Below are positions 1 through 22,741 of a stretch of 23,156 bases of DNA, piece by piece (position 1 is the stretch's first letter; every line of letters starts with the position of its first letter). The notes under the pieces are model-generated. The model was not told the DNA's origin. It made no database searches and worked only from the letters and a program-made list of their open reading frames with translations. The translations under genes were made by a program, and so were the position numbers. Source of the stretch: Candidatus Micrarchaeota archaeon (GTDB taxonomy: Archaea; Micrarchaeota; Micrarchaeia; Norongarragalinales; SBBD01); NCBI GenBank assembly GCA_043813365.1, contig JBDRLB010000010.1, positions 1 through 23,156 on the forward strand. The letters run 5' to 3'.

Positions 1-1
1 G

Positions 2-220
2 GTTGGGGGCAATTACCGGAACAAGCGGCTGCAGGAAATGACAATTGCGCTTGCCGAAGAGCACCACATTCCGCATTATTTTCCCGCATTCGAGTATTTG
101 GGGGACAATGCAGGAATGATCACTCTCACTGGGGCAATGCAGTTCGCAAGCGGCGTTTACGACAGCAGCAAAGTCCCGAACCAGAGGGCAAGGGTTGACG
201 CGGAGAATGTGGGATGGTAA
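2..220 (+). CDS. kae1: tRNA N6-adenosine threonylcarbamoyltransferase Kae1 (KEOPS), 3' partial
   Basis: The frame is open from nt 2 and reads VGGNYRNKRLQEM...YLGDNAGMI...NQRARVDAENVGW*. This matches the archaeal Kae1 C-terminus (GGVxxNxRLQEM; DNGAMI; QRxRxDxVxxxW). Confidence 0.85.
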   Translation, partial: VGGNYRNKRLQEMTIALAEEHHIPHYFPAFEYLGDNAGMITLTGAMQFASGVYDSSKVPNQRARVDAENVGW

Positions 221-274
221 GAACGATTTATTAATCTCGTTTTTCTATGTACTTTATTCAAGAGGTGGATGATT

Positions 275-763
275 ATGGAAAAGCATGCTCACAAGGAGGG
301 GAATAAGGAAGGCGCAAAGCAAGAGGCGCGCGAGTCATGGGACCACTATTTCATGCGCCTTGTTGATGCTGTTGCAACAAGGGCGACCTGCAACCGGAGG
401 AAATTCGGCGCGCTCCTTGCAAGGGAGCATTTCATACTTGCAACCGGGTACAACGGTTCCGCAAGGGGGCTTCCTCACTGCACCGAAGTGGGCTGCAAAT
501 TGATCCACGGCCATTGCGTCCGCACAATCCATGCGGAGCAGAATGCGATAATTTCAGCAGCAAGGAACGGCATCAATGTGAACGGCGCAACTTTGTACAG
601 CTCAGGGTTCCCGTGCCTCATTTGCGCAAAATTGCTTGTTAATTTGGGGATCAAGCGCATCGTCTACAGGGAGATGTACTTCAGGGACGATTACAAGGAG
701 GAGCTTGAGTTCACGCATGAGCTTTTTAAGGAGGCGGGGATCGAGACCGTGCAGTTGAAATAG
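275..763 (+). CDS. dCMP deaminase / ComEB-like Zn-dependent deaminase
   Basis: Motifs WDHYFM, RATCNRR, TGYNG, HAEQNA and PCLIC. SD-like GAGGTGG at 262-268 favours ATG 275 over ATG 269. Confidence 0.92.
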   Translation: MEKHAHKEGNKEGAKQEARESWDHYFMRLVDAVATRATCNRRKFGALLAREHFILATGYNGSARGLPHCTEVGCKLIHGHCVRTIHAEQNAIISAARNGINVNGATLYSSGFPCLICAKLLVNLGIKRIVYREMYFRDDYKEELEFTHELFKEAGIETVQLK

Positions 764-770
764 TTTTTTT
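764..770 (+). terminator. T7 tract after the deaminase stop, probable archaeal terminator
   Basis: TAG is followed by TTTTTTT at a convergent gene junction. Confidence 0.45.
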
Positions 771-1653
771 ACCTTTCCCATTTTTGGGATTTTGGAGCCG
801 TTCCATCCCAGTGCTTCCTCATCAATCCGGCGAATTCCGTCACAACTTTCGCATACCATTTACTGTTATTGTATCCCATCAAAGGTTTCCTGTATGGCAA
901 CTCCCTTTCAGCCCCTTTTTTCCAGCCCTCATTCTTCAGATAAATGGCAACCATACTGATCGCTTCCCTCGGGTCATTGTAATCGAAATTCCTCCCAACA
1001 TGCTTGTAATGCCTCATCAATGAGGAGGGCATGAATTGCGGCCAGCCGATTGCTCCCGCATACGAGCCGCAGTAATCCAGCGGATTCGCGCCCTGCATCT
1101 TTGCGAATAGCAGCAGGTTCCTAATGTCGTGCAGGATTTCCGTTCGTTTGTCGGGTTTTTTCGCTTCCCTGTACCTGGAGATCAGCGCATTGAGCGCCTC
1201 GTAGCTTCCCGTATCCTTTCCGTACGTGCTCTCTATCCCCAATACGCTTGCAATGTATTCCGGCGCAACCCCGTGATCCCTCTGGGCTTGCGCAAGCTCC
1301 CTCCTGTATTTTTCAACGAATTTTTTCCCATGTGATATCCTGATTGGCTCTATGAAAATTTTCCTGTACTCCTCGAATGTCATTGTGCGTGCCCTTTTGG
1401 GAATGCGGTAAATCTGGATGAGCGGGTCGTCGAACACCTCGAGCTGCTTTTTATCAATTCCGCTCCTGTGGAGCCAATCTTTGATTTCCGGCAGTTCGGG
1501 AATTTTTACCGGTTTGGTGCGTGCGAATAGCTCGGAAGGGATGATGAATGCAAGCGCTGTTGCGGCTCCCGCAGCTTTGAGGAATCTGCGCCGGGAAATA
1601 GGGTTTCCCGACGGATTCATTTGGCGCTCAGGTTCTTCGGATTCCTGCTTCAT
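769..1653 (-). CDS. MltB/Slt35-type (SLT_2, GH103) lytic murein transglycosylase with twin-arginine signal peptide
   Basis: Catalytic motif ASVLGIESTYGKDTG (Glu141), GSYAGAIGWPQFMPSS, AIYLKNEGWKKG and YNNSKWYAKVV. N-terminal SRRRFLK followed by a hydrophobic stretch. Confidence 0.9.
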   Translation of the reverse strand: MKQESEEPERQMNPSGNPISRRRFLKAAGAATALAFIIPSELFARTKPVKIPELPEIKDWLHRSGIDKKQLEVFDDPLIQIYRIPKRARTMTFEEYRKIFIEPIRISHGKKFVEKYRRELAQAQRDHGVAPEYIASVLGIESTYGKDTGSYEALNALISRYREAKKPDKRTEILHDIRNLLLFAKMQGANPLDYCGSYAGAIGWPQFMPSSLMRHYKHVGRNFDYNDPREAISMVAIYLKNEGWKKGAERELPYRKPLMGYNNSKWYAKVVTEFAGLMRKHWDGTAPKSQKWER

Positions 1654-1676
1654 GGAATTGGTATGCTTATCTGGAT

Positions 1677-3068
1677 TTATAACAATTTCCTGCTCCCGAA
1701 CATGTATTCCTGCACCTTTTCCGTGAAGCGGGAGTAATTGGCATCCGAAATTGGAAGCGATTCGATGAAGTTGCGCCTCCTTGCCATTTCGGCGATTATC
1801 CCATCCGCATCCATCTTATAATTGATAGCCATTTTGCGGGCAATTCGGCTTTTCCTGAATGCTTCCTGATGGAAAAGGAGGGAGTCCTTCCGGGCGTCGT
1901 ATGAAAAAATGGGGGTCGCTTTTCCGCCATTGATTTCACTTATTTCAAAAACCCTCCGGATTTCGGAGTGCGCTTTCTTCCCTGCATCGTACATGGAGGC
2001 CCTCCTCAAAACCACGATAAGGTCTATTGATGAAAGCTCGTCCCTCGGTATTCCAAATCCATTCAGCCTGTTCACGCACTCCTCGGAATTTTGCGCATGG
2101 AACGTAGCATAGCACCCTTTAGCCTGCCCTGCTTGGAGCGACTCCATCAATGCGAGCGTTTCCTCCTTCGAGCGCACTTCCCCGACAATCACGCGGTCCG
2201 GCCGCATACGGAGCGTATTATGCACCAAATCCGCCATTGATATTTTTAGCGACTGGTTCGTCACCAAATTGATGCGGTGCTGCTGCAGGATGCATATTTC
2301 CGGCGTTTCCTCCGCAATTATCACCCGCTCATCCATCGGGATGAAAGAGAATAGCGCGTTCAGGAAAGTGGTTTTGCCGCTGCCCGTATTCCCGCATATC
2401 AGCACGGAAAGGTCGGAGAAGGCGGCGATCCAAAGGAACGCTGCAGCTTCGGGGGAAATGGCGCGTTTGCTCGCCAGCTCCGGCATCGACAGCGGGTTTT
2501 TCGTGAATTTCCTTATTGTGATCTCAAAACTTCCCGCATTCAGCGGTGGGATCGACGCATGCAGCCTAGAGCCGTCGGGAAGCTGCGCATTGAGCATCGG
2601 CGATTTGTAGGTTATGTGCCTCCCAAGCGGGCGCGCCATCTTGTTGATCGCATTTACCGCAAAATTTCCCGAGGAAATGGAGCAATTCGTATCCCTCCAG
2701 CCTGCATTCCTCCCATATATCCGGATGGGCGAATCCAGGCCGGTAACCGAAATCTCCTCTATTGATTCATCTTCCAAAAGGATGTCGAAAATCCCCAATC
2801 CCGCAATATTCATCCGGGCGATTTTTTCTATCAGGAGCCCGCGCTCCAATTTGAGCAGTTTTTTCCTCGCAATGCAGATTTCCTTGAGCAGATTGTGGAG
2901 CATTTCGGGCAGGTTTTGCTTGGTTGAGGGAGACTTGACGGCCAATTCCGAATAACTGCTTACCAATTCCGAGTAAAGGGACGCCTCTTCCCTATTAAGC
3001 GCGTAGTTTTCATTGATGAAATATGGCGCCCTTTTTTCCGGATCAACTTTCCAGCCGATTTCCTCCAT
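1677..3068 (-). CDS. Type II/IV secretion / pilus assembly ATPase (VirB11/CpaF/FlaI family)
   Basis: LPDGSRLHA, ITIRKF, Walker A GNTGSGKTT, Asp box EETPEI, LRMRPDRVIVGEVR (Walker B) and ATFHA His box. Confidence 0.93.
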   Translation of the reverse strand: MEEIGWKVDPEKRAPYFINENYALNREEASLYSELVSSYSELAVKSPSTKQNLPEMLHNLLKEICIARKKLLKLERGLLIEKIARMNIAGLGIFDILLEDESIEEISVTGLDSPIRIYGRNAGWRDTNCSISSGNFAVNAINKMARPLGRHITYKSPMLNAQLPDGSRLHASIPPLNAGSFEITIRKFTKNPLSMPELASKRAISPEAAAFLWIAAFSDLSVLICGNTGSGKTTFLNALFSFIPMDERVIIAEETPEICILQQHRINLVTNQSLKISMADLVHNTLRMRPDRVIVGEVRSKEETLALMESLQAGQAKGCYATFHAQNSEECVNRLNGFGIPRDELSSIDLIVVLRRASMYDAGKKAHSEIRRVFEISEINGGKATPIFSYDARKDSLLFHQEAFRKSRIARKMAINYKMDADGIIAEMARRRNFIESLPISDANYSRFTEKVQEYMFGSRKLL

Positions 3069-3110
3069 GGAAGCTCACGCTTTTCCGAGTAAGCCTCCAC
3101 ATTTTAGGAT

Positions 3111-3129
3111 TAAAAAAAAAGAAAAAAAG
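3111..3129 (-). terminator. Long T-rich tract just downstream of the surface-protein stop, probable terminator
   Basis: The minus strand reads TAA-TTAC-T7-C-T9. Confidence 0.6.
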
Positions 3130-3132
3130 TAA

Positions 3133-5514
3133 TTACTTCTTCCTCCTGCCCCTCTTGGGCTTTACGGGCTCTTCCTCCTCCGGCTCCTCTTCCTCAGCTT
3201 CCTCCCCATCGCCCTTGTCATTCTTCAGGACGAAGTAGAGCGCCGCGACAACAATCAGGAAAGCGACCAGCAGCAGCGGAATGGATCCGAGGTTTGCAGC
3301 AGAGCCGCCATCTCCCATGCCGGTCATGTTGCCGGTAACATTCACCTGAAGTGTAATTGGCTTGTATCCAGCCCTGGAAAGGGTGATGAGGAATGTGCCT
3401 GCGCCGATTTTCGTGGAAAGCTCCCCGTTCTCGTCCGCCTTTTCCTCGCGCGGCGTGCCGTCCTCGCCGGCTATCAATATCCTTGCTCCAGGAAGGGTCT
3501 TGATAATCAGCGAATCGTTCTCGTAATTTATCTGCGCATCGAGGTCCTTCACTTCCGAGGTTGAGTCGGTCGGCTTCGGGGTTGTGGTTTGCACCGGCGT
3601 CGGGGAGGCCTTCTCTTCCGGCTCCATGTCAATTGCAAACTGCTTCGATGCGGAAACGCCCTTGCTCTCCGCCTTCATGTCGACGCTGAAAGTTGTGCCG
3701 CATTTGGATGGCGAGGGGAATATGACAAGATTCACATTCCGGCTTTCGCCTGATTTGAGCAGCAAGTTGTCCGGTGTCACTTTCGATCCGCCTGTTGCGG
3801 AAAGCGATACCGCGGTCTCCCTGGAGCCGCGGTTTGTGACGGTTACCGCCTGGCTCTTGATTTCGCATTTGGAAAGGATGCTTGTCAATGCGGCCTTGAG
3901 CTCTATCCCGTAGCATTGCTCCTTGCTCTTGACAGTAAGCTCGATCTTCAGCTTGTCCTGCATGTCGGGGTAGGAAACGGATTTTGCGGCAATAACGCCG
4001 TTGTAAGTGCCGCTCTCCAGCTTGCATGAGCCGACTGTTGCCTCCAGCTTCGCCTTCTCCTTGCTGGCAACGGATACTGCCGCTTCCTTCAGGTTCACGA
4101 AGTCGCTCTCGCTTGCAAGGCTGAATTTGTCATCCTTGACCCCGAAATTGATCAGCTCGTAATTGATTGTCGCGGTTTCGCACGGGCACAATTCAACCGC
4201 AGGGCCCGTGAGTCTGAAATCGTAGCATTTCTGGATTGAAATTTCCTTCTGGACGGTGTCCTTCGAATCCTTCGATTCAGCTGTTATTTTCGCGGTGAAT
4301 GCGCCTGTAGCCGAGTTTTTCGGTATTGTGAATTTGAGCGTCTGCGATTCGAATTTCCCGAGATTCACATTCCCGGATGACAATTTGGCTTCCACTCCTG
4401 AAACTGAAACCTTGTATTCTGCAGGGGTCTCGCGGTTCTTAATTACCAGATCATATTCCGCGCCATCCTCGGAGCAGATGACCTTCCCCGCCTGCATCTG
4501 CAGGTCGGTGCCGAAGCACTCCCTTGATTTCACTGAAATCTGCTTTTCAACCGTTTTCAAATCCGAAGTAGCTGTCAATTTTACTGTTTTTTCGCCTTCG
4601 GGCGCGTTTACATTCAGCTCTATTTCCGCTGTTTCGCCGTAATGCAGCGTCCCGGATGTGGGCTTAAGCGTGAGGAACGATGCATCCGAGGCCAGTTTGA
4701 CATCAGCCGGTGCGCCCTTGTTGACCAGGCTGATTTTGAACGCGGTGGGAACGCCTGCGCAAACCTCTATGGTGAAAGGTGCGGACAATTCAAACGCTTC
4801 GCAGTTCTTGACTTCTACCTTTACAGTTGCAGTATCTACGTCGGTTGTGGGCACGTCGGTCGCCTCATACAGCGCCTGCGCCTTGATGTCGAAATTATAT
4901 TCCCCAACGGAAAGCACCGAAGCATCAATCGTGTAGCTAATGGTTTTTTCGGAATTCATGTCCACAAACACTTTGGGGAGTATCGTGATGGCCTTCGGGT
5001 TTGCATCCTTCGATGACACTGAAAGCGCATAAGACCTGCCCTCGTCGCGTGCGATGTTCCTGATTGCAAGCTTCGGGCTCGCGGTTTCCCCGCGGCAGAG
5101 GCTTATCCCGGCCGGCTCCTGCACCAGCACGCACGATGTGACATCGATGCCGATCCTCGCAGTTGCACTTCCTGATGCTGATTTTGCAGTTACGGAAGAG
5201 GAATATTTCCCCGGTATGGCGAAGCAGTCGGGCGTTACGAAAGCGGTGATTTCCTTTGATGATTTTGCAGGGAGGCTGAATTCCTTAGGCCCCGGGATCA
5301 CCCACGGCTTGTCCCCAGAAGCGCCCATCGTTACAGCTTCGGAAATATCGGATGGATTAGAGGCCGTCAGCTTGACGAGCGTGGTTTCGCAGATGCAGCT
5401 TTTTATTGAGCTGCTCTCCGGCACCAGCGCCAGGGCGTGCGCGAATGGCAAAAGCATTGCCATCGCGAAAATGCACAAAATTGCTGCTTTCCTGATCCCG
5501 AATCCATTCGTCAT
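3133..5514 (-). CDS. Large membrane-anchored cell-surface protein (about 793 aa) with about six Cys-containing Ig-like repeats
   Basis: Start re-called at ATG 5514, with GAGGGAG upstream and a signal peptide ending ...LLPFAHA. Repeating beta-rich units, a P/T-rich linker, C-terminal TM helix IPLLLVAFLIVVAALYFVL, then an acidic and a basic tail. Confidence 0.85.
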   Translation of the reverse strand: MTNGFGIRKAAILCIFAMAMLLPFAHALALVPESSSIKSCICETTLVKLTASNPSDISEAVTMGASGDKPWVIPGPKEFSLPAKSSKEITAFVTPDCFAIPGKYSSSVTAKSASGSATARIGIDVTSCVLVQEPAGISLCRGETASPKLAIRNIARDEGRSYALSVSSKDANPKAITILPKVFVDMNSEKTISYTIDASVLSVGEYNFDIKAQALYEATDVPTTDVDTATVKVEVKNCEAFELSAPFTIEVCAGVPTAFKISLVNKGAPADVKLASDASFLTLKPTSGTLHYGETAEIELNVNAPEGEKTVKLTATSDLKTVEKQISVKSRECFGTDLQMQAGKVICSEDGAEYDLVIKNRETPAEYKVSVSGVEAKLSSGNVNLGKFESQTLKFTIPKNSATGAFTAKITAESKDSKDTVQKEISIQKCYDFRLTGPAVELCPCETATINYELINFGVKDDKFSLASESDFVNLKEAAVSVASKEKAKLEATVGSCKLESGTYNGVIAAKSVSYPDMQDKLKIELTVKSKEQCYGIELKAALTSILSKCEIKSQAVTVTNRGSRETAVSLSATGGSKVTPDNLLLKSGESRNVNLVIFPSPSKCGTTFSVDMKAESKGVSASKQFAIDMEPEEKASPTPVQTTTPKPTDSTSEVKDLDAQINYENDSLIIKTLPGARILIAGEDGTPREEKADENGELSTKIGAGTFLITLSRAGYKPITLQVNVTGNMTGMGDGGSAANLGSIPLLLVAFLIVVAALYFVLKNDKGDGEEAEEEEPEEEEPVKPKRGRRKK

Positions 5515-5687
5515 ACAAACTCCCTCGTAGAAAATGATATAACTTGATAGTGGTAATTTACGCACCAATAAATAAAAAGCTATTTGCGGGGGCTTTTGGG
5601 CCATTATTGGCGGAAAATCAGCAATATATTGGGAATTATCCGGGAAAAAGATCAAATAGCGGATATTATTCGGATGCGGCGGATAAT

Positions 5688-6434
5688 TTATTTCTTCTTT
5701 TTCCTGAGCTTCAGCTCCTCCATCAGCCCGCCGGATTTCCTCTTAGGTTCCTGTTTCCCAACAAGTTTGAGCTCCACTTTATTAGGTTCGGTTTTCTCTA
5801 TCGGCCTTATGGCGCCAGCCGAGAAGCTGACGGTCTGCAGCGAAGCGGACTTGTTCTCCTCATCCTCCAGCGCCTGCAAGGAGGCGATTATCAGCCTTGC
5901 AATTACCTCCGCTTCCTTCTCCTCCTCAAAAAGCACCTTCACCTGCGTCCTGCCGTCCTTCAGGTCATAAATCCTCGCCACTATGAATGGCCTATTGCTG
6001 ATGAAATTCGCGGGGTAATTGAATTTGGTGCCGGTAGTATATTTTTGGAGGACGGAAACAAAGTAGCGCTCTATCCCGAACTCGAAATTGTCCACCTTGC
6101 TGAACGGGATGTTCTTGTCTATGAACAGCTTGGCGATCCGCGCCTTCGCCTTTTCGTAATTTACCTTGTAAATGAACCGGTTCTTTGCCGAAAAATTGAT
6201 TGAAATATCCAATATGAGCAGGTCCAGCAGCACGACCGCCTTCAGTATAAGGTAAGGGAGCGAAATTAGCAGTATGATGCTGACGATCTCGTTCTTGGTG
6301 ACTCCTTCGGTAAGCGCATTCGGGAACCAATACGCCGCAACGCCGATCCCGGCAAGGAAAACCAGCAAGGTAAATGCACGCTGGTTCAGGAATCCCAGTG
6401 CAGCTTTCGAGCATTTCACGAATTTGCCTATCAT
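5688..6434 (-). CDS. Hypothetical membrane protein (2 N-terminal TM helices + soluble domain), paralog of 6437-7087
   Basis: Two hydrophobic segments; shared blocks with the neighbour (YxVNxEK..AR, GxERY, RPFxV); 2-nt gap to the upstream gene. Confidence 0.8.
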   Translation of the reverse strand: MIGKFVKCSKAALGFLNQRAFTLLVFLAGIGVAAYWFPNALTEGVTKNEIVSIILLISLPYLILKAVVLLDLLILDISINFSAKNRFIYKVNYEKAKARIAKLFIDKNIPFSKVDNFEFGIERYFVSVLQKYTTGTKFNYPANFISNRPFIVARIYDLKDGRTQVKVLFEEEKEAEVIARLIIASLQALEDEENKSASLQTVSFSAGAIRPIEKTEPNKVELKLVGKQEPKRKSGGLMEELKLRKKKK

Positions 6435-6436
6435 TG

Positions 6437-7087
6437 CTATTTCACACCCTCATCTTCGTCTGCCGAGGCGCTTTTCTCGAGGAATTCCAGGGAATTGATT
6501 ATCACTTTCGCAAGCACTTTCGCATCCGTCTGCTCCTCCGTGAAGATCCTCACTCCGACCTTGTCCCGGTTCTCGAGCTGGTTCATAAGCCTGATGACCT
6601 TCGGGGAGCTGATCGCGCGCGAAATTTTGATCACAACAAAAGGCCTGTCAGTTGCGACGTAAATCAGCGGATACCTGAGGTGCAGCACGTTCCTCAGCTT
6701 CTGCAGCGCGTACCTTTCGACCCCAAGCGCGATCGTCTCCAGCGACTGGTAGTTCACCTTGCGCTCAAGCATCACCTTTGTGACCCGCGCCCTCACCTTC
6801 TCGATATTCACATCGTACGTCTTGTCGTAGTCCGTAGATGCGATTAGTATGAAATCGAAGAGCGCAAGCAGGAAATAAAGCAGCGCCTTGTACAGCAGGA
6901 AGGGCAGCAGCACCACGAAAACCGTGAGCAGGAACTGGTGCTCCACGTTCGGCGACACCAGCTCGTTGCGGAAAAGGAACACCGAAACGGGCGATCCGAG
7001 GAGTATCGCTATTGCCATTGAAAGGCTGTTGTTCACTACCCTGAAAACTTTCGCGAGCAGCTTGAGCACACGGTCCCAGAATTGCAT
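6437..7087 (-). CDS. Hypothetical membrane protein (2 TM helices + soluble domain), paralog of 5688-6434
   Basis: Same architecture and shared blocks as its neighbour; TTTTATA box about 25 nt upstream of the ATG. Confidence 0.8.
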   Translation of the reverse strand: MQFWDRVLKLLAKVFRVVNNSLSMAIAILLGSPVSVFLFRNELVSPNVEHQFLLTVFVVLLPFLLYKALLYFLLALFDFILIASTDYDKTYDVNIEKVRARVTKVMLERKVNYQSLETIALGVERYALQKLRNVLHLRYPLIYVATDRPFVVIKISRAISSPKVIRLMNQLENRDKVGVRIFTEEQTDAKVLAKVIINSLEFLEKSASADEDEGVK

Positions 7088-8398: not shown

Positions 8399-11300
8399 AT
8401 GACCGAACGGAAAGTCGGATACCGCTCTCCGATAAATAATTGGAAAGGGAAGAAGATCCTCGTAATAGGGAGCGGCCCCATCGTGATCGGGCAGGCTGCG
8501 GAATTCGATTACTCCGGCACGCAATGCTGCCGCGCATTGAAGGAGGAGGGCGTCATCGTCATTCTCGTGAACAGCAACCCCGCAACAATCCAGACGGATT
8601 TCGAATTCGCCGACAGGATATATATAGAGCCGCTGGTTCCGAAGACTCTTGAAAAGATCATCGCAGCCGAGAATCCGGATGGCATCATCGTGACCATGGC
8701 CGGCCAGACCGGGCTGAACCTTGCAACACAGATGAAGGATGCGATTGCACGCAACAACATCCGAGTTTTAGGGACACCCATTGAGGCCATCGCCCTCGCC
8801 GAGGACCGGGAGAAATTCGCGGAACTGATGCGGAAAATAAGCGAGCCAATACCGACAAGCGAGAGGGCAACATCCCTGGAGGAGGGGATTGCAGCTCACA
8901 AGAACATAGGCATCCCCCTGATCATCCGCCCGGATTTCGCGTTGGGAGGCAGCGGATCCGCGATCGTCCGCAAAGAAAGCGATTTCCTTCCTTCTTTGGA
9001 GAATGCGCTCAACCTCTCCGGCACGCATTCGTGCCTGCTGGAGCAGTCCGTTGAAGGGATGTGCGAACTGGAATACGAGGTCATCCGCGACTCCCATGAC
9101 AATTGCATCATCATATGCAACATGGAAAACATCGATGCGATGGGCGTGCATACCGGAGAGAGCATCGTTGTCGCTCCCTCACAAACCCTTACCGACAAGG
9201 AATACCATCAACTGAGGAAGGTCGCAATAAAGGTTGTGCGCGCACTCGGGGTTATCGGCGCGTGCAACATCCAATTCGCATTAAATCAAAAAACCGGCGA
9301 TTACTTTATTATTGAGGTCAACCCCCGCACCTCCCGCAGTTCTGCACTTGCATCCAAAGCCACCGGCTATCCCATTGCACGGATCGCCTCCAAAATCGCG
9401 CTCGGTTACCCGCTACATGAAATTGAGAACAAAATCACCGGGAAATCTGCCGCATTCGAGCCCGCCCTTGACTATGTTGTTGTAAAAATACCCAAATGGC
9501 CGTTCGACAAGCTGTACGCGCAAAAAACGCTGGGCACCCAGATGAAGAGCACCGGCGAAGTGATGTCAATCGGAAGGAATTTTGAGGAGGCGCTCCAGAA
9601 GGCGGTCCATTCCCTTGAGCTGAAGCAGAAAATAGAGTTCGATTTTTCAAATGAGGATGAAATTGAGAGGCTGCTCCAGCCAAACGAACTCCGCCTTTTC
9701 GCAATCAAGGACATTCTGCGCCAAAACCTTCTTTCCCCATCCGAAATCGCCTCCAAATCAAAAATCAACAAGTGGTTCATCGATAAGCTGAAAAACATCG
9801 TGGATATGGAATCGGAGCTCTCGAAAATCCGCATCGGCGACCCCTCTTCAAACGCACTCATATTGGATGCAAAGCGCTCGGGCTATTCGGACAACCAGAT
9901 CGCTAAATACGCGGGCGTCTCAACGGATGCGATATCCTTCCTCCGCAACAAGCAGAAAATGGATGCGTGCTTCAAGATGGTGGATACCTGTGCGGCTGAA
10001 TTCGAGGCAATCACCCCCCTATTATTACTCCACATACGAGCAGGAGGACGAGTCCATGCTGCTCGAAAAAAAGGGAAGCAGGAAAAAAGTGATTATTTTG
10101 GGCGGAGGGCCCATACGCATAGGGCAGGGGATAGAGTTCGATTATGCGACAGTGCATGCGGTAATTGCGCTGAAGGAGCTCGGATATGAATCCATAATCA
10201 TCAACAACAATCCCGAAACCGTTTCGACCGATTTCGACGTTTCTTCAAAATTGTATTTCGAGCCCCTCACTTCAGAGAACGTATTGAACGTGATTTCGAA
10301 GGAGGGGCAAATTGAAGGGGTTGTTGTGCAATTCGGCGGCCAAACTGCTGTGAACCTCTCCCTTCCGTTGGAGCAGGCGGGTGTCCGCATACTGGGCACT
10401 TCCGTCGCCTCGATTGATGCTTCCCAGAACCGCAAGAAATTCAAGGCGCTCATGCAAAGGCTCAAAATCCCCCTTGTTGAGAGCGGCGTCGCATTCACAC
10501 GCGAGGAGGCCCTCGAAATAGGCCGCAGCATCTCATTCCCGCTGCTGATCCGGCCTTCCTACGTATTGGGGGGCCGTGCGATGTCGATTGTTTACGATGA
10601 GAAGCAATTGCTGAAAAAAATCGATGAGGCAATTTTCATCTCCGGCAATTATGCCATCATCATGGACCGCTTCCTCGAGGATGCAATAGAGGTTGATGTT
10701 GATGCGCTTTGCGACGGGAAAAATGTGAAAATTGCGGGCATCATGGAGCAGATAGAGGAGGCTGGCATCCATTCGGGCGATTCGAGCTGCGTGATCCCTG
10801 CAATCCGCATAAATTCGGCCGCGCTACGGAAAATCCGCGATTACACAAAAAACATCCTCCTCGAGCTCAACATCATCGGGCTCGCCAACATCCAGATGGC
10901 CGTGAAAGGCGAGGATGTGTACGTTCTGGAAGTCAACCCCCGCGCCTCCCGAACCGTCCCCTACTTGAGCAAATCCACCGGCTACCCGATTGCGAAAATC
11001 GCGGCCGCTTTGCAGGTGGGGAAAAAGCTGACCGACTATTTTCCCTCCTTCGATCGCGAGCTCGTCCCGAAAAAAGGCTATTATTCCGTCAAAGTTCCCG
11101 TTTTCCCATTCATCAAATTCCCCGATGTGGATCCCCTTCTGGGGCCGGAAATGAAGAGCACCGGAGAAGTGATGGGCATCGCAAAATCATTCGAGGAGGC
11201 GTATTTGAAAGCGCAGCTTGCAGCAGGCAACAATTTCGGCAATTCCGTTTTCCTAGGAAGCTGCGGGAAATGGAAGAAAGTGCTCTCGCAGGCATTCCAA

Positions 11301-11579
11301 AAAGCCGGATTGAAAATATATGATTCCGAAAAATATGACCCTGCCTCAATTTTGCGCCTCCTAAAAGCGGGCTCCATCGCCTTCGTTGTTGATGGCATCC
11401 GTGCGCATGGCAATGGCGAGGAGGAAATCAGGAAAACAGCTGAAATCCGGAAACTCGCGATCCAGAAAAGATTGCCGGTGATAAGCAGCTATTTTGCTTC
11501 GCTGAAAATCGCGGAATCGATTCTGAAGATGAAAAATAAATGGGATTTTGAACCCATTGCGCTCAACGACCTAAAATAA
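8399..11579 (+). CDS. carB: Carbamoyl-phosphate synthase large subunit, interrupted by a +1 C at 10014-10019 (two ORFs: 8399-10189 and 10056-11579)
   Basis: GSGPIVIGQAAEFDYSG, EVNPRTSRSSALASKATGYPIA, GGGPIRIGQGIEFDY and EVNPRASRTVP. Removing one C restores [20 protein letters not shown] and a 1059-aa protein. Confidence 0.95.
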
Positions 11580-15515: not shown

Positions 15516-16457
15516 TTATTTCCTCCTTCCCCTTACCAGCTGCCTCAGCATGTACCTTGTAGCTATACTGAACCTCTCCCTTCCCATCCCTGCCGCCCCC
15601 CTCATCCTTCCGGCAGCATTCAGCTGCAGCCTTCCGAACCTGCTGTTTTGCATCGCCCCAAGTATCGCACTCCTCCTTTGCTCATGCTCACTGATGCTCC
15701 TCCTTAACATTCCGGGGAACTCCTCGACCAATCTCCTTCCTTTGGTTTCGTTCAAATTTACGTAATCAGCAAGCCTTTCAACTTGTTCCCTGATGTAGAA
15801 TTTGCTCGGCCTGACTGTTCTCCACCTATGCCCCAATTCGTCCTGCCCCCGCGTCAGCAGCCTGCTTCCTCCAGCTGCACTCGCTGCGGCCATTGCCATT
15901 GCCCAAGGATCCGTGCCCATTCCTTTACCAAAAACATAACCCATCCCTCCGAGCCCCATCATCATTCCCGGATAAGTGTTTAGGTTATTCCTCACAATTT
16001 CCAAAAGCCGCCAGCTTGTTTTCATGGCGCCCCTTGTCCCTTCTTCCGCCCTCCTCGCAAGCGCTTCCCTTAGCAATGGCGGAATGGGAATCCTTGATAC
16101 CATCCTGCCTGCAAATGCGGGCGTCGCCTCAACCTGCCTTGCGCCCGGAAAATACGGGTTGATTCCCTCCCTCAGCATCCTTCTATTTTCCGGATGCTCC
16201 ATTTCCTTTAGCATCCGGCGCATGATTGTGATGTTCCTTCCGGCGCTCCACGCCCTTATTGCGAGCAAACTCCTTGGTATTTTCTGTGGCGCCTCGTAAG
16301 TGAACCTCTCCCTCAGAATTTCAGCCGAATCCTCCGGCGAGAGGAAATCGCGCACTCCCCTTTTCAACAGCCTTGCAAACCCCCCGCGCCTTCGCCTAAC
16401 TGCCCCCTTATCCCTTCTTACGGATTCCACTTCCCTTTCCCGCATTGCAGTTGGCAT
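15516..16457 (-). CDS. Hypothetical Arg-rich protein with a central Gly/Met/Ala-rich segment
   Basis: Long ORF filling the gap between genes; TTTATAT box about 25 nt upstream of ATG 16457; no family recognised. Confidence 0.7.
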   Translation of the reverse strand: MPTAMREREVESVRRDKGAVRRRRGGFARLLKRGVRDFLSPEDSAEILRERFTYEAPQKIPRSLLAIRAWSAGRNITIMRRMLKEMEHPENRRMLREGINPYFPGARQVEATPAFAGRMVSRIPIPPLLREALARRAEEGTRGAMKTSWRLLEIVRNNLNTYPGMMMGLGGMGYVFGKGMGTDPWAMAMAAASAAGGSRLLTRGQDELGHRWRTVRPSKFYIREQVERLADYVNLNETKGRRLVEEFPGMLRRSISEHEQRRSAILGAMQNSRFGRLQLNAAGRMRGAAGMGRERFSIATRYMLRQLVRGRRK

Positions 16458-16571
16458 GGGAACATTTTGCACTTTCGGAAATATAAATCAGCATCCATAT
16501 TAGCCAATCCCTCACTTTCCATAAAAACTGGCTGTGTTTTATTTATTAATCATAAATCCGTTGTTTTCTAT

Positions 16572-17819
16572 ATGTTCGAATCACTTAGGAGGGTGTTTTT
16601 AGCCAAGGGCAAAATAACGAGAAGCAGCGGCGAATATCTGATCCAATTCAGATTATTTGGAGATTCCAAGCGGTTTGCATCCGAAATTTCCAAAGACATT
16701 TCAAGACGGTTCGGCATCAAACAAGCCGCGAGACGCGGCCATCCGGCCCACGTCACCCTTTTTGGCCCATTTTCCTCTGAAGATGAGAAAAATCTAACCA
16801 TCGAGTTTGGATCATTCTGTAAAAAATTGGGTTTGATCAAATACCGCCTGAGTGGTTTTGACAATATCGACAAAGAGGTTATTTTCCTTGATGTTGAGCC
16901 CTCTGAAGATCTGAAGGAAATGCGTCATAATCTGGCCCAGCATTTTATGAAATTCACCCGCGGATACCCGATATGGGACGCGGGCAGGGATTTCATTTTC
17001 CATACAACTTTAACCAAGGACTTTGGCAATAAATTCAACCAAATTTGGAGTCATCTGAGCAAGGTTCATGCCCCCAAATTCGATCAATATCTATTGAGGA
17101 TAACGCTATTGCGGCGTGGTCGCATCCTTAGCGAGTATGATCTGATCCAACGGAAAATGTTGGATCGGGAAGCGGCTTTGAGCCGGGAGGAATTGCGCCG
17201 TACAATCTCCGCTGTTAATGAAATCAGGAAAAATGGCGGAAAACGGAAACAAGTTGTTTTCAAAGAAGATGGCTCTAGAAAGGTCTATTTCATAAGTGAT
17301 ACCCACTTTGACCATGCCAATATAATTCGTTATTGCAACCGCCCCTTTCATACTGCCGATGAAATGAATGCCTCACTGGTTGAAAATTGGAATAAGGCTG
17401 TTGGAAAGAATGATGCAATTTACTTCTTGGGGGATATGGCTTTTGGTGCCGGAAGCAGGCCCGCAAGCTATTGGCTATCGAAACTAAACGGGAAAATTAT
17501 TTTCATTGAAGGAAACCACGAGGAAACCGGAAAAATCAATACTTATCCGCCGGTTTGTGATCTGATTTTGGATTACAAGGAAAATCGCTATTTTCTAATT
17601 CACGATCCTGCTCAGGTCCCGAGTTATTGGAAAGGTTGGATTATCCATGGGCATAAACACAATAATGACCTAAGAAATTACCCTCTAATAAACCCAGTTA
17701 AAAAAACGATTAACGTCGGCGTGGAGTTGATCAATTATGCCCCAATAAGTATCGATAGAATTATCGAGCTTCAGAATAAATCTGCATCCACCCGCAATCA
17801 CCCCTCAATCCCAATATAA
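16572..17819 (+). CDS. Fusion of 2H-phosphoesterase (2'-5' RNA ligase-like) and calcineurin-like metallophosphoesterase
   Basis: Two HxT motifs (HVTL, FHTTL), then SDTHFDH, LGDM, GNHE, IHDP, HGHKH and INVGVE. Start re-called at ATG 16572. Confidence 0.85.
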   Translation: MFESLRRVFLAKGKITRSSGEYLIQFRLFGDSKRFASEISKDISRRFGIKQAARRGHPAHVTLFGPFSSEDEKNLTIEFGSFCKKLGLIKYRLSGFDNIDKEVIFLDVEPSEDLKEMRHNLAQHFMKFTRGYPIWDAGRDFIFHTTLTKDFGNKFNQIWSHLSKVHAPKFDQYLLRITLLRRGRILSEYDLIQRKMLDREAALSREELRRTISAVNEIRKNGGKRKQVVFKEDGSRKVYFISDTHFDHANIIRYCNRPFHTADEMNASLVENWNKAVGKNDAIYFLGDMAFGAGSRPASYWLSKLNGKIIFIEGNHEETGKINTYPPVCDLILDYKENRYFLIHDPAQVPSYWKGWIIHGHKHNNDLRNYPLINPVKKTINVGVELINYAPISIDRIIELQNKSASTRNHPSIPI

Positions 17820-19187: not shown

Positions 19188-19433
19188 ATGCGAATCGAAT
19201 TCTCATTGCAGGCCGAAAAGTCGTTTTCTGCAATAGATAAGCCCATCCGCGAAAGGATGCTGAAAAAACTCCTCGAAATCGAAAAAGATCCCGCTAGGTT
19301 CATCCAGGACCTCAAGGGCCTCCCATTCGACAAGATAAGGATCGGCGATTACCGGCTGTTCGTAAAGTTCGAGCCGCAGCGAAGCCTCCTGTTCATCGCC
19401 GACATCAAACACCGGAGCGTCGCATACAAGTGA
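19188..19433 (+). CDS. RelE/ParE family toxin
   Basis: MRIEFS..AEK, LKG...KIRIGDYRL and IADIKHRSVAYK; 81 aa. Confidence 0.88.
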   Translation: MRIEFSLQAEKSFSAIDKPIRERMLKKLLEIEKDPARFIQDLKGLPFDKIRIGDYRLFVKFEPQRSLLFIADIKHRSVAYK

Positions 19434-19444
19434 CTGCCGGCAAC

Positions 19445-19552
19445 ACCCGTACTCACCCCCTTCTCCCTTTCTTTTCCTACCGCCAAAACCAGGTTGTCGT
19501 ACTCCTCCTTGGCTTCGTTCAGCAAAACAACCCTAATTTTCTTCCCTTTTAC
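19445..19552 (-). pseudogene. Probable truncated toxin remnant without a start codon, downstream of the wHTH gene
   Basis: The frame overlapping the wHTH stop reads (GTA)KGKKIRVVLLNEAKEEYDNLVLAVGKEREKG. This resembles the N-terminus of RelE-like proteins I recall following this wHTH family in archaea. Similarity ends at the convergent relE. Confidence 0.5.
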
Positions 19553-19827
19553 AGCTCCCTTCCCGCTGCTATTTTGGCCTCCATCTGCTTCCTTGGCAGG
19601 TACGTCCAGATTACCCCTTTTTCCGTATCCATTGCCATTCCCCTGCTTGTCAAGTACTCCAAAGTCACATCCAGCGTTTGCCGCATCACCTTGTTTCCCA
19701 TTCTCTTTGTGATCGCGTACCTGCTTAGCGGCTCTTTCGCCTCCTTCAGCACCTCCTCCACCGCCAGAACGGTTTTGAGCGTCGGGTAATGGAGCACCTG
19801 CTTTTGCATTTTTCTCACGGTCATCAT
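19549..19827 (-). CDS. Small winged-helix protein, putative antitoxin/regulator
   Basis: HYPTLKTVLAVEEVLK...KVMRQTLDVTLEYL..RG.....KGVIWTY pattern; TTATATAA box upstream. Confidence 0.75.
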   Translation of the reverse strand: MMTVRKMQKQVLHYPTLKTVLAVEEVLKEAKEPLSRYAITKRMGNKVMRQTLDVTLEYLTSRGMAMDTEKGVIWTYLPRKQMEAKIAAGREL

Positions 19828-19927
19828 TAGTATGTAATAAGTTTATATAACAGTTGTTTTCCTTCATGCAAATGAAATCTGAACAGTCGCTTATTACGGT
19901 TCGGTAGAAAATTAGTCAACTTGCGGT

Positions 19928-20515
19928 TTATTTTTGCCTTATCGTTTTCGCAAATTTTATCGCCTGCATTAGGACTGGATGGTATTTTCTGGAAAGGCCC
20001 TTCCTTAGGATCCTTGCAACAATAGCAACTGATTCTGCAAATTCGGACAAATCCTCCTTTTCAGCAGGCCTTTTCCTGTCCCCCAAGCCTACTTTCAATG
20101 CCGGTTCCTCGCCTTCGGATGGGGGCGTAAAAACAAATACCTTCCTCGATGCTGTTGGCAATTCAATTGCCATCTTATAGGTGTGCCCATCGGAAACAAA
20201 ATGCTTCGTGAAGAACACGGCGTGGGGTATTTTGCTAAACGCCTCATTGATTGCAATCCTTCCATCCCCTTCCAATTGCCGGAAAAATTGGCGATGTTCG
20301 TCCAGATCCAGCTTATGGCGTTCGGCGATCCTTTTTGAGAGTTCGTATTCGAAATTCAAATGCTTGGGGTCGATTTCCCTATGTTTCCATCCAAAAGTGT
20401 CTCCTTCCTTCCTCCTCCACGGCAGCATCGTATGGAGCTTTCCTGCGTAATCCCCGATTTCCTTTTCATAATCGGCTTTAGCCCTCTTCCTTGCCTGCTC
20501 CATTTGTTCGGCCAT
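19928..20515 (-). CDS. Hypothetical protein
   Basis: 195-aa charged ORF, co-oriented with its neighbours; no family recognised. Confidence 0.7.
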   Translation of the reverse strand: MAEQMEQARKRAKADYEKEIGDYAGKLHTMLPWRRKEGDTFGWKHREIDPKHLNFEYELSKRIAERHKLDLDEHRQFFRQLEGDGRIAINEAFSKIPHAVFFTKHFVSDGHTYKMAIELPTASRKVFVFTPPSEGEEPALKVGLGDRKRPAEKEDLSEFAESVAIVARILRKGLSRKYHPVLMQAIKFAKTIRQK

Positions 20516-20596
20516 AATTGTTTTTCCCTTCCATCAATTCGAAATATTTCTGGTGCACCACAAAAATCAACGCTCCCTTTCAGTATCACGTACAAC

Positions 20597-21673
20597 CTAC
20601 TTTTTGCCTGCCAATTCCCTCCATCTTTTTACCTTGCCCCATTTGCCTGCAATTCTTGGCGGCGTAATCCCAAAATGCTGATAATCCAGCATGAATGGCC
20701 AATTATGATCCCAATAATTGACTCCCGTCCTGAAATCGGTCGCTTCAGGATGTACGTGGCCGAACATATCCCCGAGTTTTTTCAGGCTAACGCCGGGGAA
20801 TAACCTTTTCATGGGCACTTCCCGATTCCACATCCTGTTGAATGGCTGGTACATCGCCTGTGCTTTTTTTACCCCCAGTGAGAACTGGAACCTCATTTTG
20901 GCGGCTTCCTTTTCGTAGAGCCGTACGCTGCCCTCGCCGTATTCCGCCGCAAGCCTTCCATAAACCAATTCCTCCCATGGCTGGAAATATTTGACCTGTT
21001 GTCGGTTTTTATCCGAAGGCTCCCCGATCAGGAACCTCCTGTATTCGATATATGCGAGCCCCTTCCAGAATTTGCGCAATTTTACGGTCGAATACCTATG
21101 CCCCTTCATCATTGCGGCCATGCCGTTCCTCACGATGGTTGAGCCTATTCTCATTGCAATGCTGCGTTTCGCCTCCAACGATCCGCTCGGCCTGTTTTTG
21201 AACACGCCAACATTCCGGTGGTACAGTGAAATCAGCTCCTCTGGAAGCATATCCGGCCTCACTTTGGCCCTTTTCCAATTGACCCTAAGCGGCTCCGCCT
21301 TTAGCTGCGCAGCCTTTTCCTTTCCCTGCATTTTCCTGGCGAAGCCATAAATCCTATTGCGCATCGACGACCTCAAATCCCCCTTTTCCCAAAGTAGATG
21401 CCGGAACGGATCCCTGCTATGATCGAACGAATCGATGAATTCCTGCATGCTCCTTGGCTGCCTTTCGATCAGGAACACTTTGGCGAAATAAATCAATTTT
21501 CTAAAATCAGTATTGGTGCGCCGTTCCCTCTTGAACGAGCTTGGGGGGTTGCTTGCCAATTTTCCCATGAACCACTGTGCGAATTCAAATGATTCCGAAT
21601 CCCGGAAATTTTCCTCCGTCATCGTCTCGGCGGTCCTGTTTGCGTACCTGAAAAAATTGAATTTCCGGCCCAT
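20597..21673 (-). CDS. Hypothetical basic protein
   Basis: 358-aa ORF with an AT-rich TATA-like box about 25 nt upstream; no family recognised. Confidence 0.75.
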   Translation of the reverse strand: MGRKFNFFRYANRTAETMTEENFRDSESFEFAQWFMGKLASNPPSSFKRERRTNTDFRKLIYFAKVFLIERQPRSMQEFIDSFDHSRDPFRHLLWEKGDLRSSMRNRIYGFARKMQGKEKAAQLKAEPLRVNWKRAKVRPDMLPEELISLYHRNVGVFKNRPSGSLEAKRSIAMRIGSTIVRNGMAAMMKGHRYSTVKLRKFWKGLAYIEYRRFLIGEPSDKNRQQVKYFQPWEELVYGRLAAEYGEGSVRLYEKEAAKMRFQFSLGVKKAQAMYQPFNRMWNREVPMKRLFPGVSLKKLGDMFGHVHPEATDFRTGVNYWDHNWPFMLDYQHFGITPPRIAGKWGKVKRWRELAGKK

Positions 21674-21710
21674 GTTATTTTTTCCGAAATAATTGCTTAT
21701 TAATCCATCG

Positions 21711-21747
21711 GCTTGGCAGGGCTTTCCACGGTTGCCTGAGGGTTTGA
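21711..21747 (+). repeat. Degenerate copy of the DUF4256-like gene tail (repeat of 22851-22886)
   Basis: GGGCTTTCCACGGTTGCCTGAGGGTTTGA (21719-21747) versus GGGCTTTC-GCGGTTACCTGAGGGTTTGA (22859-22886): 26 of 29 columns identical, and the upstream GCT codon is in register. Confidence 0.8.
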
Positions 21748-21820
21748 AAGTGCTGCGACTGTTTGAACGGAAGGGGGGAAGGTGGAGGGGGATTGAGGAT
21801 TAGTCGATTGTAACTCCGTC

Positions 21821-22741
21821 TTACTGTTTCCCAACATACCTCCAAAAGCCGCCGGAAAGGGGCACAAAGCCGGTTTTTCTGTAAGTCTGGTCATACTGCC
21901 TTTTGACTCGATTATATTGTGAACCAGTAAGCGTTGGGCCCAAATAGTATTGCCTTTTCGGAGGATGCCCGACTATTTCAAATTTGCCCGTGCCAATGTG
22001 GCCCAGTGCCTTGCGCAAGGCAAATACCCTCCAATTCTCACCCAGCCGGTTGTTTATTTTTTCATATTTATCTTTTTGAGCCCTCCTCCTATCCTCATAA
22101 CGAGCATCCTTTTCAAGTTCGTGTTTTTTTGCGATGGTCGATCCTTGGATGTTCGTTATCCCGATTGTTGGTTTTCCTCCAGCGTAGTAAGCCAAACCCC
22201 CTATTGTCCCTATCAGGTGGCCGAATTGGTCTGTCAGGCTAAGGACCAATGGCGCATCCACATGGACCGTTGAAGAATAGTGCGTATGGATTTCCCCCCT
22301 AAGGTCATCTTTCTGGCTCAGCCATTTCGCCATTAGCTTTGCATGAAGGTTAAAAGAGCGCACCTGCTCATCGAATGGCATTTTTATAGTGCTCAAAGTG
22401 TCAAAATAAAACATCACAATCGTTGAGGCGGAAAGAGAATGAAACTCGCTGATGGGCTTAAGCCGCCTTTCGGTTCTTTTTGCCAGCTCATCCAGCTTCT
22501 TGACCCCGGAAATAAGCTCCGATTCGAAATCAGCGTATTCTACCGCAGGGTTATTGCTCAAAATAATGCTGGACACGACGGGCAAATAGCCGGAAAGGTT
22601 TTCGGCCTTAATGCCCCAATACTCCTGCTTCGGCCAATGCGCCTTTTCATAATTTACCGGCATTGTTCCTAGTACATGCTTTGCTAAAAACCTCCTTTCC
22701 ATCCCGAGCTGCCTTTCCCGCAACTGCTTCCCTTCCTCCAT
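21821..22741 (-). CDS. Hypothetical protein, C-terminal half possibly VirK/YbjX (DUF535)-like
   Basis: 306-aa ORF with AAAAG/TTTTAAT promoter-like elements upstream. IGITNIQG and YDQTYRKTGF resemble VirK-family motifs, but weakly. Confidence 0.7.
   Translation of the reverse strand: MEEGKQLRERQLGMERRFLAKHVLGTMPVNYEKAHWPKQEYWGIKAENLSGYLPVVSSIILSNNPAVEYADFESELISGVKKLDELAKRTERRLKPISEFHSLSASTIVMFYFDTLSTIKMPFDEQVRSFNLHAKLMAKWLSQKDDLRGEIHTHYSSTVHVDAPLVLSLTDQFGHLIGTIGGLAYYAGGKPTIGITNIQGSTIAKKHELEKDARYEDRRRAQKDKYEKINNRLGENWRVFALRKALGHIGTGKFEIVGHPPKRQYYLGPTLTGSQYNRVKRQYDQTYRKTGFVPLSGGFWRYVGKQ

Follow-up and report, generated by a model that had tools for sequence, protein, structure and literature searches.

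Gene and protein at the locus

The window analyzed here is the whole of contig C10 (23,156 bases) of a 1.34-Mb, 78-contig genome of a “Candidatus Micrarchaeota” archaeon (G000), and its principal feature is a gene at positions 769 to 1653 of the minus strand. The open reading frame (ORF), Pfam match, and structure model of its 294-aa product, P0001, point to a short-form lytic transglycosylase of the SLT_2 (GH103-like) type. The plus-strand frame of this interval is full of stop codons; the minus strand is open for all 294 aa. An earlier reading of the same DNA, made from its letters without database searches (the sequence-only reading), had described the product as an exported enzyme of the MltB family with its motifs intact, and proposed a profile search. 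That search gave a match to SLT_2 (Pfam ID PF13406) with an E value of 1.1e-37, well above the cutoff (130.3 bits versus 24.3) and covering only positions 37 to 206 of the 292-position profile. The score against the NCBIfam MltB equivalog (TIGR02282), 135.1 bits, lies below the cutoff of 281.4, as do those against other MltB-type models (NF008029, 107 versus 449; MltB_2, 85 versus 248).

All the motifs lie at exactly the residues given in that reading: SRRRFLK at residues 20 to 26, the putative catalytic Glu141, the substrate-groove motif GSYAGAIGWPQFMPSS at residues 196 to 211, and YKHVGRNFDY at residues 216 to 225. The Glu141 codon (positions 1231 to 1233, minus strand) falls in a GIEST motif that aligns with GVET of the characterized enzymes SltB1 and Slt35, and the groove motif (positions 1021 to 1068, minus strand) aligns with GSYAGAMGLPQFMPSS of SltB1. 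The third of these segments (positions 979 to 1008, minus strand) appears to be a degenerate EF-hand loop. In the alignments, it faces DFDGDGH (SltB1) and DFSGDGH (Slt35), is 2 to 3 residues shorter, and has none of the acidic ligands (YKHVGR--NFDY versus DFDGDGHINIW and DFSGDGHINLW), in line with the earlier statement that no EF-hand calcium loop is present. The same reading had noted the lack of a lipobox cysteine and of a C-terminal peptidoglycan (PG)-binding domain, and here too it was right: no lipobox was found in P0001, which has no Cys ahead of residue 195, and Pfam reports only SLT_2 and TAT_signal in the protein, with no PG_binding_1 (PF01471). The C terminus lies about 30 residues past the YN.S motif. 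What that reading missed is that the approximately 65-residue alpha/beta domain of canonical MltB and SltB proteins is absent as well.

The TATA-like box that it had placed upstream of the gene corresponds to TTATAAAT (positions 1675 to 1682, minus strand), a motif match about 26 nt before the ATG that overlaps the stop codon ending the ATPase gene upstream. The ortholog in G002, a genome of the same genus in 7 contigs, has a matching A/T box, AATAAAAAT, at the same distance from its ATG. The P0001 gene is separated from the ATPase gene by 23 nt, with no Shine-Dalgarno-like run after TTATAAAT, an arrangement that fits a promoter of its own and a leaderless mRNA.

Archaeal origin of the gene

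The P0001 gene is a genuine chromosomal gene of an archaeon of the class Micrarchaeia (DPANN), and the contig that carries it is archaeal rather than a chimera. Synteny provides the strongest evidence. In G002, the corresponding locus lies on a 298-kb contig and comprises CarA, two small membrane proteins, an Ig-like surface protein of about 800 aa, a T2SSE ATPase, and SLT_2, followed by a convergent dCMP deaminase and then by Kae1 and PolD DP1 and DP2. C10 itself encodes archaeal-type PepQ, CysRS, and CarAB and a FlaI-type ATPase (Pfam and NCBIfam assignments), and its composition fits the rest of the genome (GC content of 0.50; tetranucleotide r of 0.98 to the genome mean). Short Logan contigs of sequencing run X1 (positions 714 to 1424 and 1499 to 1856) bridge the gene at either end with 0 differences; X1 is possibly the source sample, so these contigs do not count as independent support. 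Two identical pieces within the gene come from a run of another study. No RNA data set was listed for the stretch, and positions 1 to 4000 of the window are partly without contig cover in runs X1 to X4; neither result has a bearing on presence or expression.

Searches for 16S rRNA in G000 and for tRNA in the window came back empty, so the taxonomy leans on the TATA-binding protein (TBP) gene that is present in G000, on the PolD synteny, and on the names of the relatives’ proteins. ORFs of genomes of the same class match, letter for letter, database proteins from “Candidatus Micrarchaeota,” Micrarchaeia, or Anstonellaceae archaea. The TBP gene, the G002 locus beside Kae1 and PolD, and these names uphold the earlier suggestion of an archaeal, DPANN-like genome; as for its proviso that the contig might be bacterial or chimeric, the composition, the G002 synteny, and the X1 contigs across the gene ends show otherwise.

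G000 is estimated to be 88.6% complete with 3% contamination, and a family not found in it is not thereby proven absent. The comparisons below use 40 related genomes of the same genus, family, and order and a wider set of 401 genomes sampled across the phylum.

Fold and comparison with family 3 lytic transglycosylases

An AlphaFold2 model of P0001 (pLDDT, 84.3; pTM, 0.79) was built on alignment A1, which consists of 19 Micrarchaeia proteins: P0001, its G002 ortholog, and 17 full ORFs extracted from the phylum sample. The model superimposes on SltB1 with a Z score of 28.1 and a root mean square deviation of 2.0 to 2.2 Å over 229 to 232 residues (VIA-align; Foldseek E value, 1e-12) and on Slt35 with a Z score of 25.5, where 234 residues align out of the 311-residue span of Slt35. 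Both proteins are also matched at the sequence level in PDB searches (E values of 3e-31 for SltB1 and 4e-21 for Slt35). Residues 88 to 247 of P0001 align with residues 48 to 208 of SltB1 and residues 256 to 278 with residues 277 to 299, which leaves 68 SltB1 residues (209 to 276) facing 8 in P0001.

Glu141, Y96, S197, N262, and Y267 are invariant across the 19 Micrarchaeia homologs in A1, and Q206 and P209 are nearly so. In SltB2, the groove positions include Glu121, Gln183, and Asn302 (PMC12547810; here and below, the cited papers are represented by excerpts of their text). Mapped by motif, the conserved Micrarchaeia residues would correspond to these positions. The excerpts of the same paper call the EF-hand Ca2+-binding loop a distinguishing feature of family 3 enzymes, cite by title a report that the EF-hand of Slt35 is important for stability, and place the alpha/beta domain of SltB2 at residues 227 to 291, where in a model its Arg contacts the meso-diaminopimelate (m-DAP) of the stem peptide (PMC12547810).

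With the family 3A enzymes, Escherichia coli MltB/Slt35 and Pseudomonas aeruginosa SltB1, P0001 is homologous. They have in common the fold of the helical and catalytic domains (Z scores of 25 to 28), the catalytic Glu, and the groove motif GSYAGAxGxPQFMPSS, and P0001 is likewise without PG_binding_1. In contrast to them, it is archaeal, has no alpha/beta domain, EF-hand ligands, or lipobox, and scores below the MltB equivalog cutoff. Subfamily 3B (SltB2 and SltB3) carries an additional PG-binding domain according to the available text of PMC12547810, and this C-terminal PG_binding_1 was not found in P0001. The protein thus appears to be a minimal form, consisting only of the N-terminal helical domain and the lysozyme-like catalytic domain; judging from alignment and model, it looks intact and is predicted to be catalytically competent.

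Signal motif and export route

The sequence-only reading had assigned P0001 a signal of the twin-arginine translocation (Tat) type, and of this claim the motif stands while Tat export does not find support. The motif SRRRFLK (positions 1576 to 1596, minus strand) is directly followed by a hydrophobic stretch at residues 27 to 39 (positions 1537 to 1575, minus strand), and the AlphaFold2 model has a helix at residues 21 to 36. Both Tat-signal profiles score above their cutoffs (Pfam TAT_signal, PF10518, 24.6 versus 22.7 bits; TIGR01409, 24.6 versus 16.7). The twin-arginine (RR) motif recurs as MERRKFLK in the G002 ortholog and as SRRHFNK and SRRTFNK in homologs from G407 and G229, genomes of another family.

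The search for tatC that the earlier reading suggested returned nothing in G000 or in any relative examined: TatC was found in none of the 40 relatives, nor in any of 5 named genomes, among them G407 and G229, both of which have an RR-bearing SLT_2. TatA was not found in G000 either. The same Tat searches were positive in 11 of 14 control genomes, three archaea among them; the genomes searched are 68 to 97% complete, so the components are not found rather than proven absent. Given that no Tat translocase was found and that SecY is present, Sec is most likely the route by which P0001 would be exported. The RR motif may persist as a relic from a bacterial donor.

Short forms, distribution, and phylogeny

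The distance from the PQF to the YN.S motif is bimodal over 180 family members, with 42 to 62 residues in one class and 112 to 125 in the other. P0001 belongs to the short class, as do all 19 Micrarchaeia proteins. The long forms are set apart by a branch supported at 94 to 96 in FastTree (180 rows) and at 100 in a quick IQ-TREE run (55 rows). On the question, raised earlier, of whether the archaeal homologs form a clade, neither of these trees places the Micrarchaeia rows in one (15 changes in FastTree and 11 in IQ-TREE). A DxDxDG-like loop, judged by eye from the alignment, is kept in 9 of the 19 and missing in 10; P0001, its G002 ortholog, and the f12/f24 group are among those that have lost it.

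Among the 40 relatives, SLT_2 is above the cutoff in just G000 and G002, and across the phylum it is above the cutoff in 20 of 401 genomes, which represent 11 of 155 genera, all of one class. The 17 other Micrarchaeia genes have varied housekeeping neighbors (aminoacyl-tRNA synthetases, DnaK, SufBD, an Obg-like GTPase, and DNA polymerase B), which indicates that SLT_2 genes are settled in archaeal chromosomes.

Short forms are also bacterial. A profile search retrieved 14,076 hits. The closest proteins to P0001 among 5.8 billion are bacterial MltB proteins with 31 to 43% identity, the named ones coming from Burkholderiaceae and Gammaproteobacteria. One short form, P0188, is encoded beside ParA/ParB in a metagenome-assembled genome labeled Gammaproteobacteria (locus L034); used as a single query, it retrieved 3 related loci among genome contigs, and alignment A3 as a query retrieved none there. 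The structure-nearest Atlas clusters, of 268 to 280 aa, are labeled Bacteria, which is a lead only, and no solved short-form structure turned up in PDB searches. Of 10 unlabeled short-form proteins whose cluster members were listed, 10 yielded no names. The uncharacterized bacterial short forms (about 250 to 330 aa) have the same two domains as P0001 and are separated, together with it, from long-form MltB by a split with 100% support. They differ in that those examined retain a DxDxDG-type loop (consensus of alignments A2 and A3), which P0001 and the G002 protein have lost, and in that their hosts, unlike that of P0001, make murein.

The G000 and G002 proteins group together with the unlabeled P0173 (SH-aLRT, 90); the branch of the gene is long (1.35 changes per column). 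They are only 34% identical to each other, versus 55 to 87% for six flanking gene pairs. The two genes are therefore probably orthologs that evolve fast, which is common among interaction proteins.

Gene neighborhood

The upstream neighbor of the P0001 gene (positions 1677 to 3068, minus strand) encodes a 463-aa ATPase that appears to be of the FlaI/VirB11/TadA secretion type (Pfam T2SSE, E value of 4.9e-35; NCBIfam FlaI, 192 bits, below the cutoff). The order ATPase-SLT_2 is the same in G002. In the slot after the orthologous ATPase, G003 and G004 have an unrelated ORF, the one in G004 with no Pfam match, and G005 has nothing. A general functional link between the two genes was considered and rejected: 0 of the 17 other Micrarchaeia loci have a T2SSE ATPase as a neighbor. 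Five relatives (G003 to G007; 1.2 to 1.6 Mb) have 6 to 8 matches per genome to FlaI/VirB11-type ATPases, i.e., many genes for pilus-like or secretion ATPases.

Farther upstream (positions 3133 to 5517, minus strand) lies the gene for a large putative surface protein of about 794 aa, with a signal-like N terminus, weak Ig-like Pfam matches, a membrane helix at the C-terminal end, and an acidic/basic tail. The positional ortholog in G002 shares 63% identity with it, and an oligo-T run follows the stop codon of the gene in C10. Upstream of it are two adjacent ORFs (positions 5688 to 6434 and 6437 to 7087, minus strand) for proteins of 248 and 216 aa with N-terminal membrane helices and no Pfam match; both are kept at the same place in G002 (62 and 72% identity). 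The convergent downstream neighbor of the P0001 gene (positions 269 to 763, plus strand) encodes a predicted dCMP/cytidine deaminase (Pfam dCMP_cyt_deam_1, E value of 7.8e-24) that is 87% identical to its G002 ortholog. At the loci of the RR-bearing SLT_2 genes in G407 and G229, the adjoining gene (L007:2267-3595 and L012:2321-3580, respectively) codes for a protein with DUF333 and a Kazal-type protease-inhibitor domain.

Substrate and biological role

No murein polymerases were found in the lineage (GT51 and SEDS each in 0 of 40 genomes), nor was any penicillin-binding protein transpeptidase found in G000. The substrate is therefore probably foreign murein, and the earlier inference of a foreign substrate was a reasonable one. 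As a possible sign of the organism’s own murein, one Mur-ligase-family ORF (on contig C56) was considered; it is no evidence, as M. jannaschii and H. volcanii, which served as archaeal controls, match this family too. GH23-type SLT domains (PF01464) are above the cutoff in 23 of the 40 relatives, far more commonly than SLT_2, and G000 has one in a predicted second lytic transglycosylase gene (C26:39849-40130, locus L025; 40.4 bits), so that murein-cutting enzymes appear to be a trait of the lineage.

The reading that we favor, and to which we give an even chance of being right, is that P0001 would serve as a wall-breaching tool in contact with bacteria, be they hosts or prey, rather than as a catabolic enzyme. 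It would leave the cell through Sec and then be released or stay tethered to the surface by its hydrophobic stretch. Outside the cell, it would cut, in the non-hydrolytic manner of family 3 enzymes, the bond between N-acetylmuramic acid (MurNAc) and N-acetylglucosamine (GlcNAc) in bacterial murein, with Glu141 as the acid/base and 1,6-anhydro-MurNAc as the product. The fast divergence of P0001 relative to the flanking genes is the pattern expected of an interaction protein.

Several observations weigh against a wall-breaching role. Two hallmarks of family 3, the EF-hand and the alpha/beta domain, are missing, so activity or specificity may differ, and the Arg-Arg pair of Slt35 stands opposite Asp168-Lys169 in P0001. 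The retention of an RR motif in genomes where no Tat system was found is unexplained. The gene is above the cutoff in only 2 of the 6 genomes of the genus and is dispensable, and its link to the ATPase is seen in this genus only. What the analysis shows is the gene with its archaeal surroundings and synteny, the fold with its conserved catalytic and groove residues, and that neither Tat components nor murein synthases were found; that P0001 is exported and by which route, that it is active, that it targets bacteria, and what role it plays are inferred.

Scavenging is an unlikely alternative. Secreted P0001 might degrade free murein or dead bacterial walls in groundwater for GlcNAc, MurNAc, and amino acids, with no attack on living cells. 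The enzyme, its signal for export, and the absence of murein from the organism itself would fit this equally well, and DNA of the organism was detected in runs labeled groundwater and biofilm metagenomes. Dead-cell peptidoglycan has been proposed, in the excerpted text of PMC11537232, as an amino-acid source for Pacearchaeota. However, AnmK and LD-carboxypeptidase, the two catabolic families searched for, were not found in G000, and muropeptide catabolism is therefore not favored. Free secretion would also be costly for a cell with a 1.3-Mb genome, and fast divergence is unexpected for a bulk catabolic enzyme.

A bolder version of the wall-breaching role, in which some Micrarchaeia are epibionts or predators of bacteria, seems to us an unlikely one. 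A surface-displayed, Ca-independent P0001 might then act with the pilus-type ATPase and the Ig-like protein to open the wall at the point of contact, having been exported through Sec despite its Tat-like signal or by some RR-dependent route yet to be recognized, and an arms race with host walls or inhibitors would explain why it diverges so fast. The cultured Micrarchaeota live on archaea, which in the case of the class Micrarchaeia are wall-less.

Such archaeal hosts would suit a different alternative, which we consider rather improbable: P0001 might have been repurposed for a non-murein, GlcNAc-rich glycan of the cell’s own envelope or of an archaeal host, for instance in remodeling near pilus-like machines, with the stem-peptide contacts lost. 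The loss of the alpha/beta domain, which contacts m-DAP in the SltB2 model, of the EF-hand, and of the Arg-Arg pair (now Asp-Lys) would be in line with this, as would the position of the gene right after a pilus/FlaI-like ATPase and a large surface protein in two genomes of the genus. However, the lytic transglycosylase reaction requires the C6 hydroxyl of muramic acid and its lactyl context. The groove residues are conserved, short forms of the same architecture occur in ordinary bacterial contexts (ParA/ParB, L034) where the substrate is surely murein, and the 17 other Micrarchaeia homologs are not beside pilus ATPases.

Still less can be said for the gene being a remnant, neutral or decaying, of a transfer from bacteria, without function and with a signal peptide from a Tat-using donor, which we regard as very improbable. 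The patchy presence in the genus, the long branch, the score far below the MltB equivalog cutoff, and the lack of any Tat system found in the lineage are what a relic would lead one to expect. Against this, two species whose proteins are 34% identical both have an intact frame with all catalytic and groove residues kept, the RR motif persists in four divergent homologs, the TATA-like box is equally distant in both orthologs, and the structure model is confident. Bacterial contamination or a chimeric assembly, which the 3% contamination estimated for the bin and the exclusively bacterial MltB identity of the nearest named relatives outside Micrarchaeia might suggest, is effectively refuted already by the 23-kb setting of archaeal genes with the composition of the genome, the same synteny beside PolD on a 298-kb contig of another species, the spanned junctions, and the 20 of 401 phylum genomes that hold such genes amid housekeeping genes.

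Relation to previous work

The sequence-only reading had considered a bacterial target to be notable, which overstates its novelty, as the same inference has been published for GH23 enzymes in other DPANN lineages. Castelle et al. (2021; PMC8204110) suggested bacterial hosts from a DPANN lytic transglycosylase domain, which had been seen earlier in three DPANN genomes, and by the account in the excerpts of that paper, the ecological idea has been in print since 2013 to 2015. Vigneron et al. (2022; PMC9723730) proposed predatory Woesearchaeota from GH23 genes, and lytic murein transglycosylases in DPANN are connected with bacterial hosts or prey in the excerpts of PMC11537232, PMC10634959, and PMC12352652 as well.

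The large GH23 (PF01464) proteins of Woesearchaeota and Pacearchaeota embody the same idea, in that an exported murein cutter in a murein-less DPANN archaeon is read as a sign of a bacterial host or prey. As described in the available text, they differ from P0001 in being GH23 rather than GH103-like, in reaching up to 3,000 aa versus 294 aa, and in coming from other DPANN lineages. Fam00969 is characterized in the excerpts of PMC8204110 by a PF01464 domain in a very large extracellular protein, and P0001, with PF13406 only, falls outside it. The haloarchaeal modular peptidoglycan hydrolases of Strock et al. (2025; PMC12352652) are reported to kill bacteria, with activity shown for two proteins. 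They, too, are archaeal, exported (65% through Sec and 35% through Tat among those with signals), and aimed at bacteria. As far as the excerpts show, they combine catalytic and binding domains and are of other catalytic types, whereas P0001 is a single catalytic module; the main text of that paper, in the form available, is without the terms SLT, GH103, and PF13406.

A 2012 survey listed GH103 in 0 of 101 archaeal genomes, according to the excerpt of PMC3541169. Our literature searches found no paper joining MltB with DPANN and, among the titles listed for GH103 and archaea, none that concerns DPANN, although supplements of the cited papers may list such genes; the papers listed for Micrarchaeota and lytic transglycosylase include none devoted to enzymes of this type. 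In public records, the SLT_2 proteins of these Micrarchaeota already carry the name “lytic murein transglycosylase.” The new elements are that a GH103-like enzyme of Micrarchaeia has a minimal architecture and has lost its EF-hand, that it bears a Tat-like signal while searches of the lineage turned up no Tat system, and that it diverges unusually fast.

If P0001 is active on murein, it would add a second, structurally minimal class of wall-cutting enzymes to the DPANN toolkit and extend the bacterial-target hypothesis to Micrarchaeia. Current views are not overturned; the finding adds to the published hints of such archaea attacking or feeding on bacteria. Predicted to be small, soluble, and easily expressed, and having neither a Ca site nor an alpha/beta domain, P0001 could also serve as a test object for the minimal needs of family 3 catalysis. 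Its RR signal offers a clean case for following Tat-type signals after transfer to a host in which no Tat system was found.

Other features of the contig

An Arg-rich 318-aa ORF (positions 15516 to 16472, minus strand) and four ORFs of 172 to 358 aa (positions 19349 to 22741, minus strand) have no significant Pfam match; one of them has only a weak match to DUF3981 (E value of 0.005), and the last 4 kb of the contig codes for proteins without a family match. The gene for the large chain of carbamoyl-phosphate synthase, carB (positions 8399 to 11579, plus strand), is split into two overlapping ORFs in different frames, with the switch near positions 10014 to 10019 in a run of six C residues (…AEFEAITP / YYYSTYE…). 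The G002 gene reads through in a single frame for at least 918 aa, and the split in G000 is either a homopolymer assembly error or a true frameshift. A 450-aa ORF (positions 16467 to 17819, plus strand) combines a 2'-5' RNA ligase-like (2H phosphoesterase) domain with a calcineurin-like metallophosphoesterase domain.

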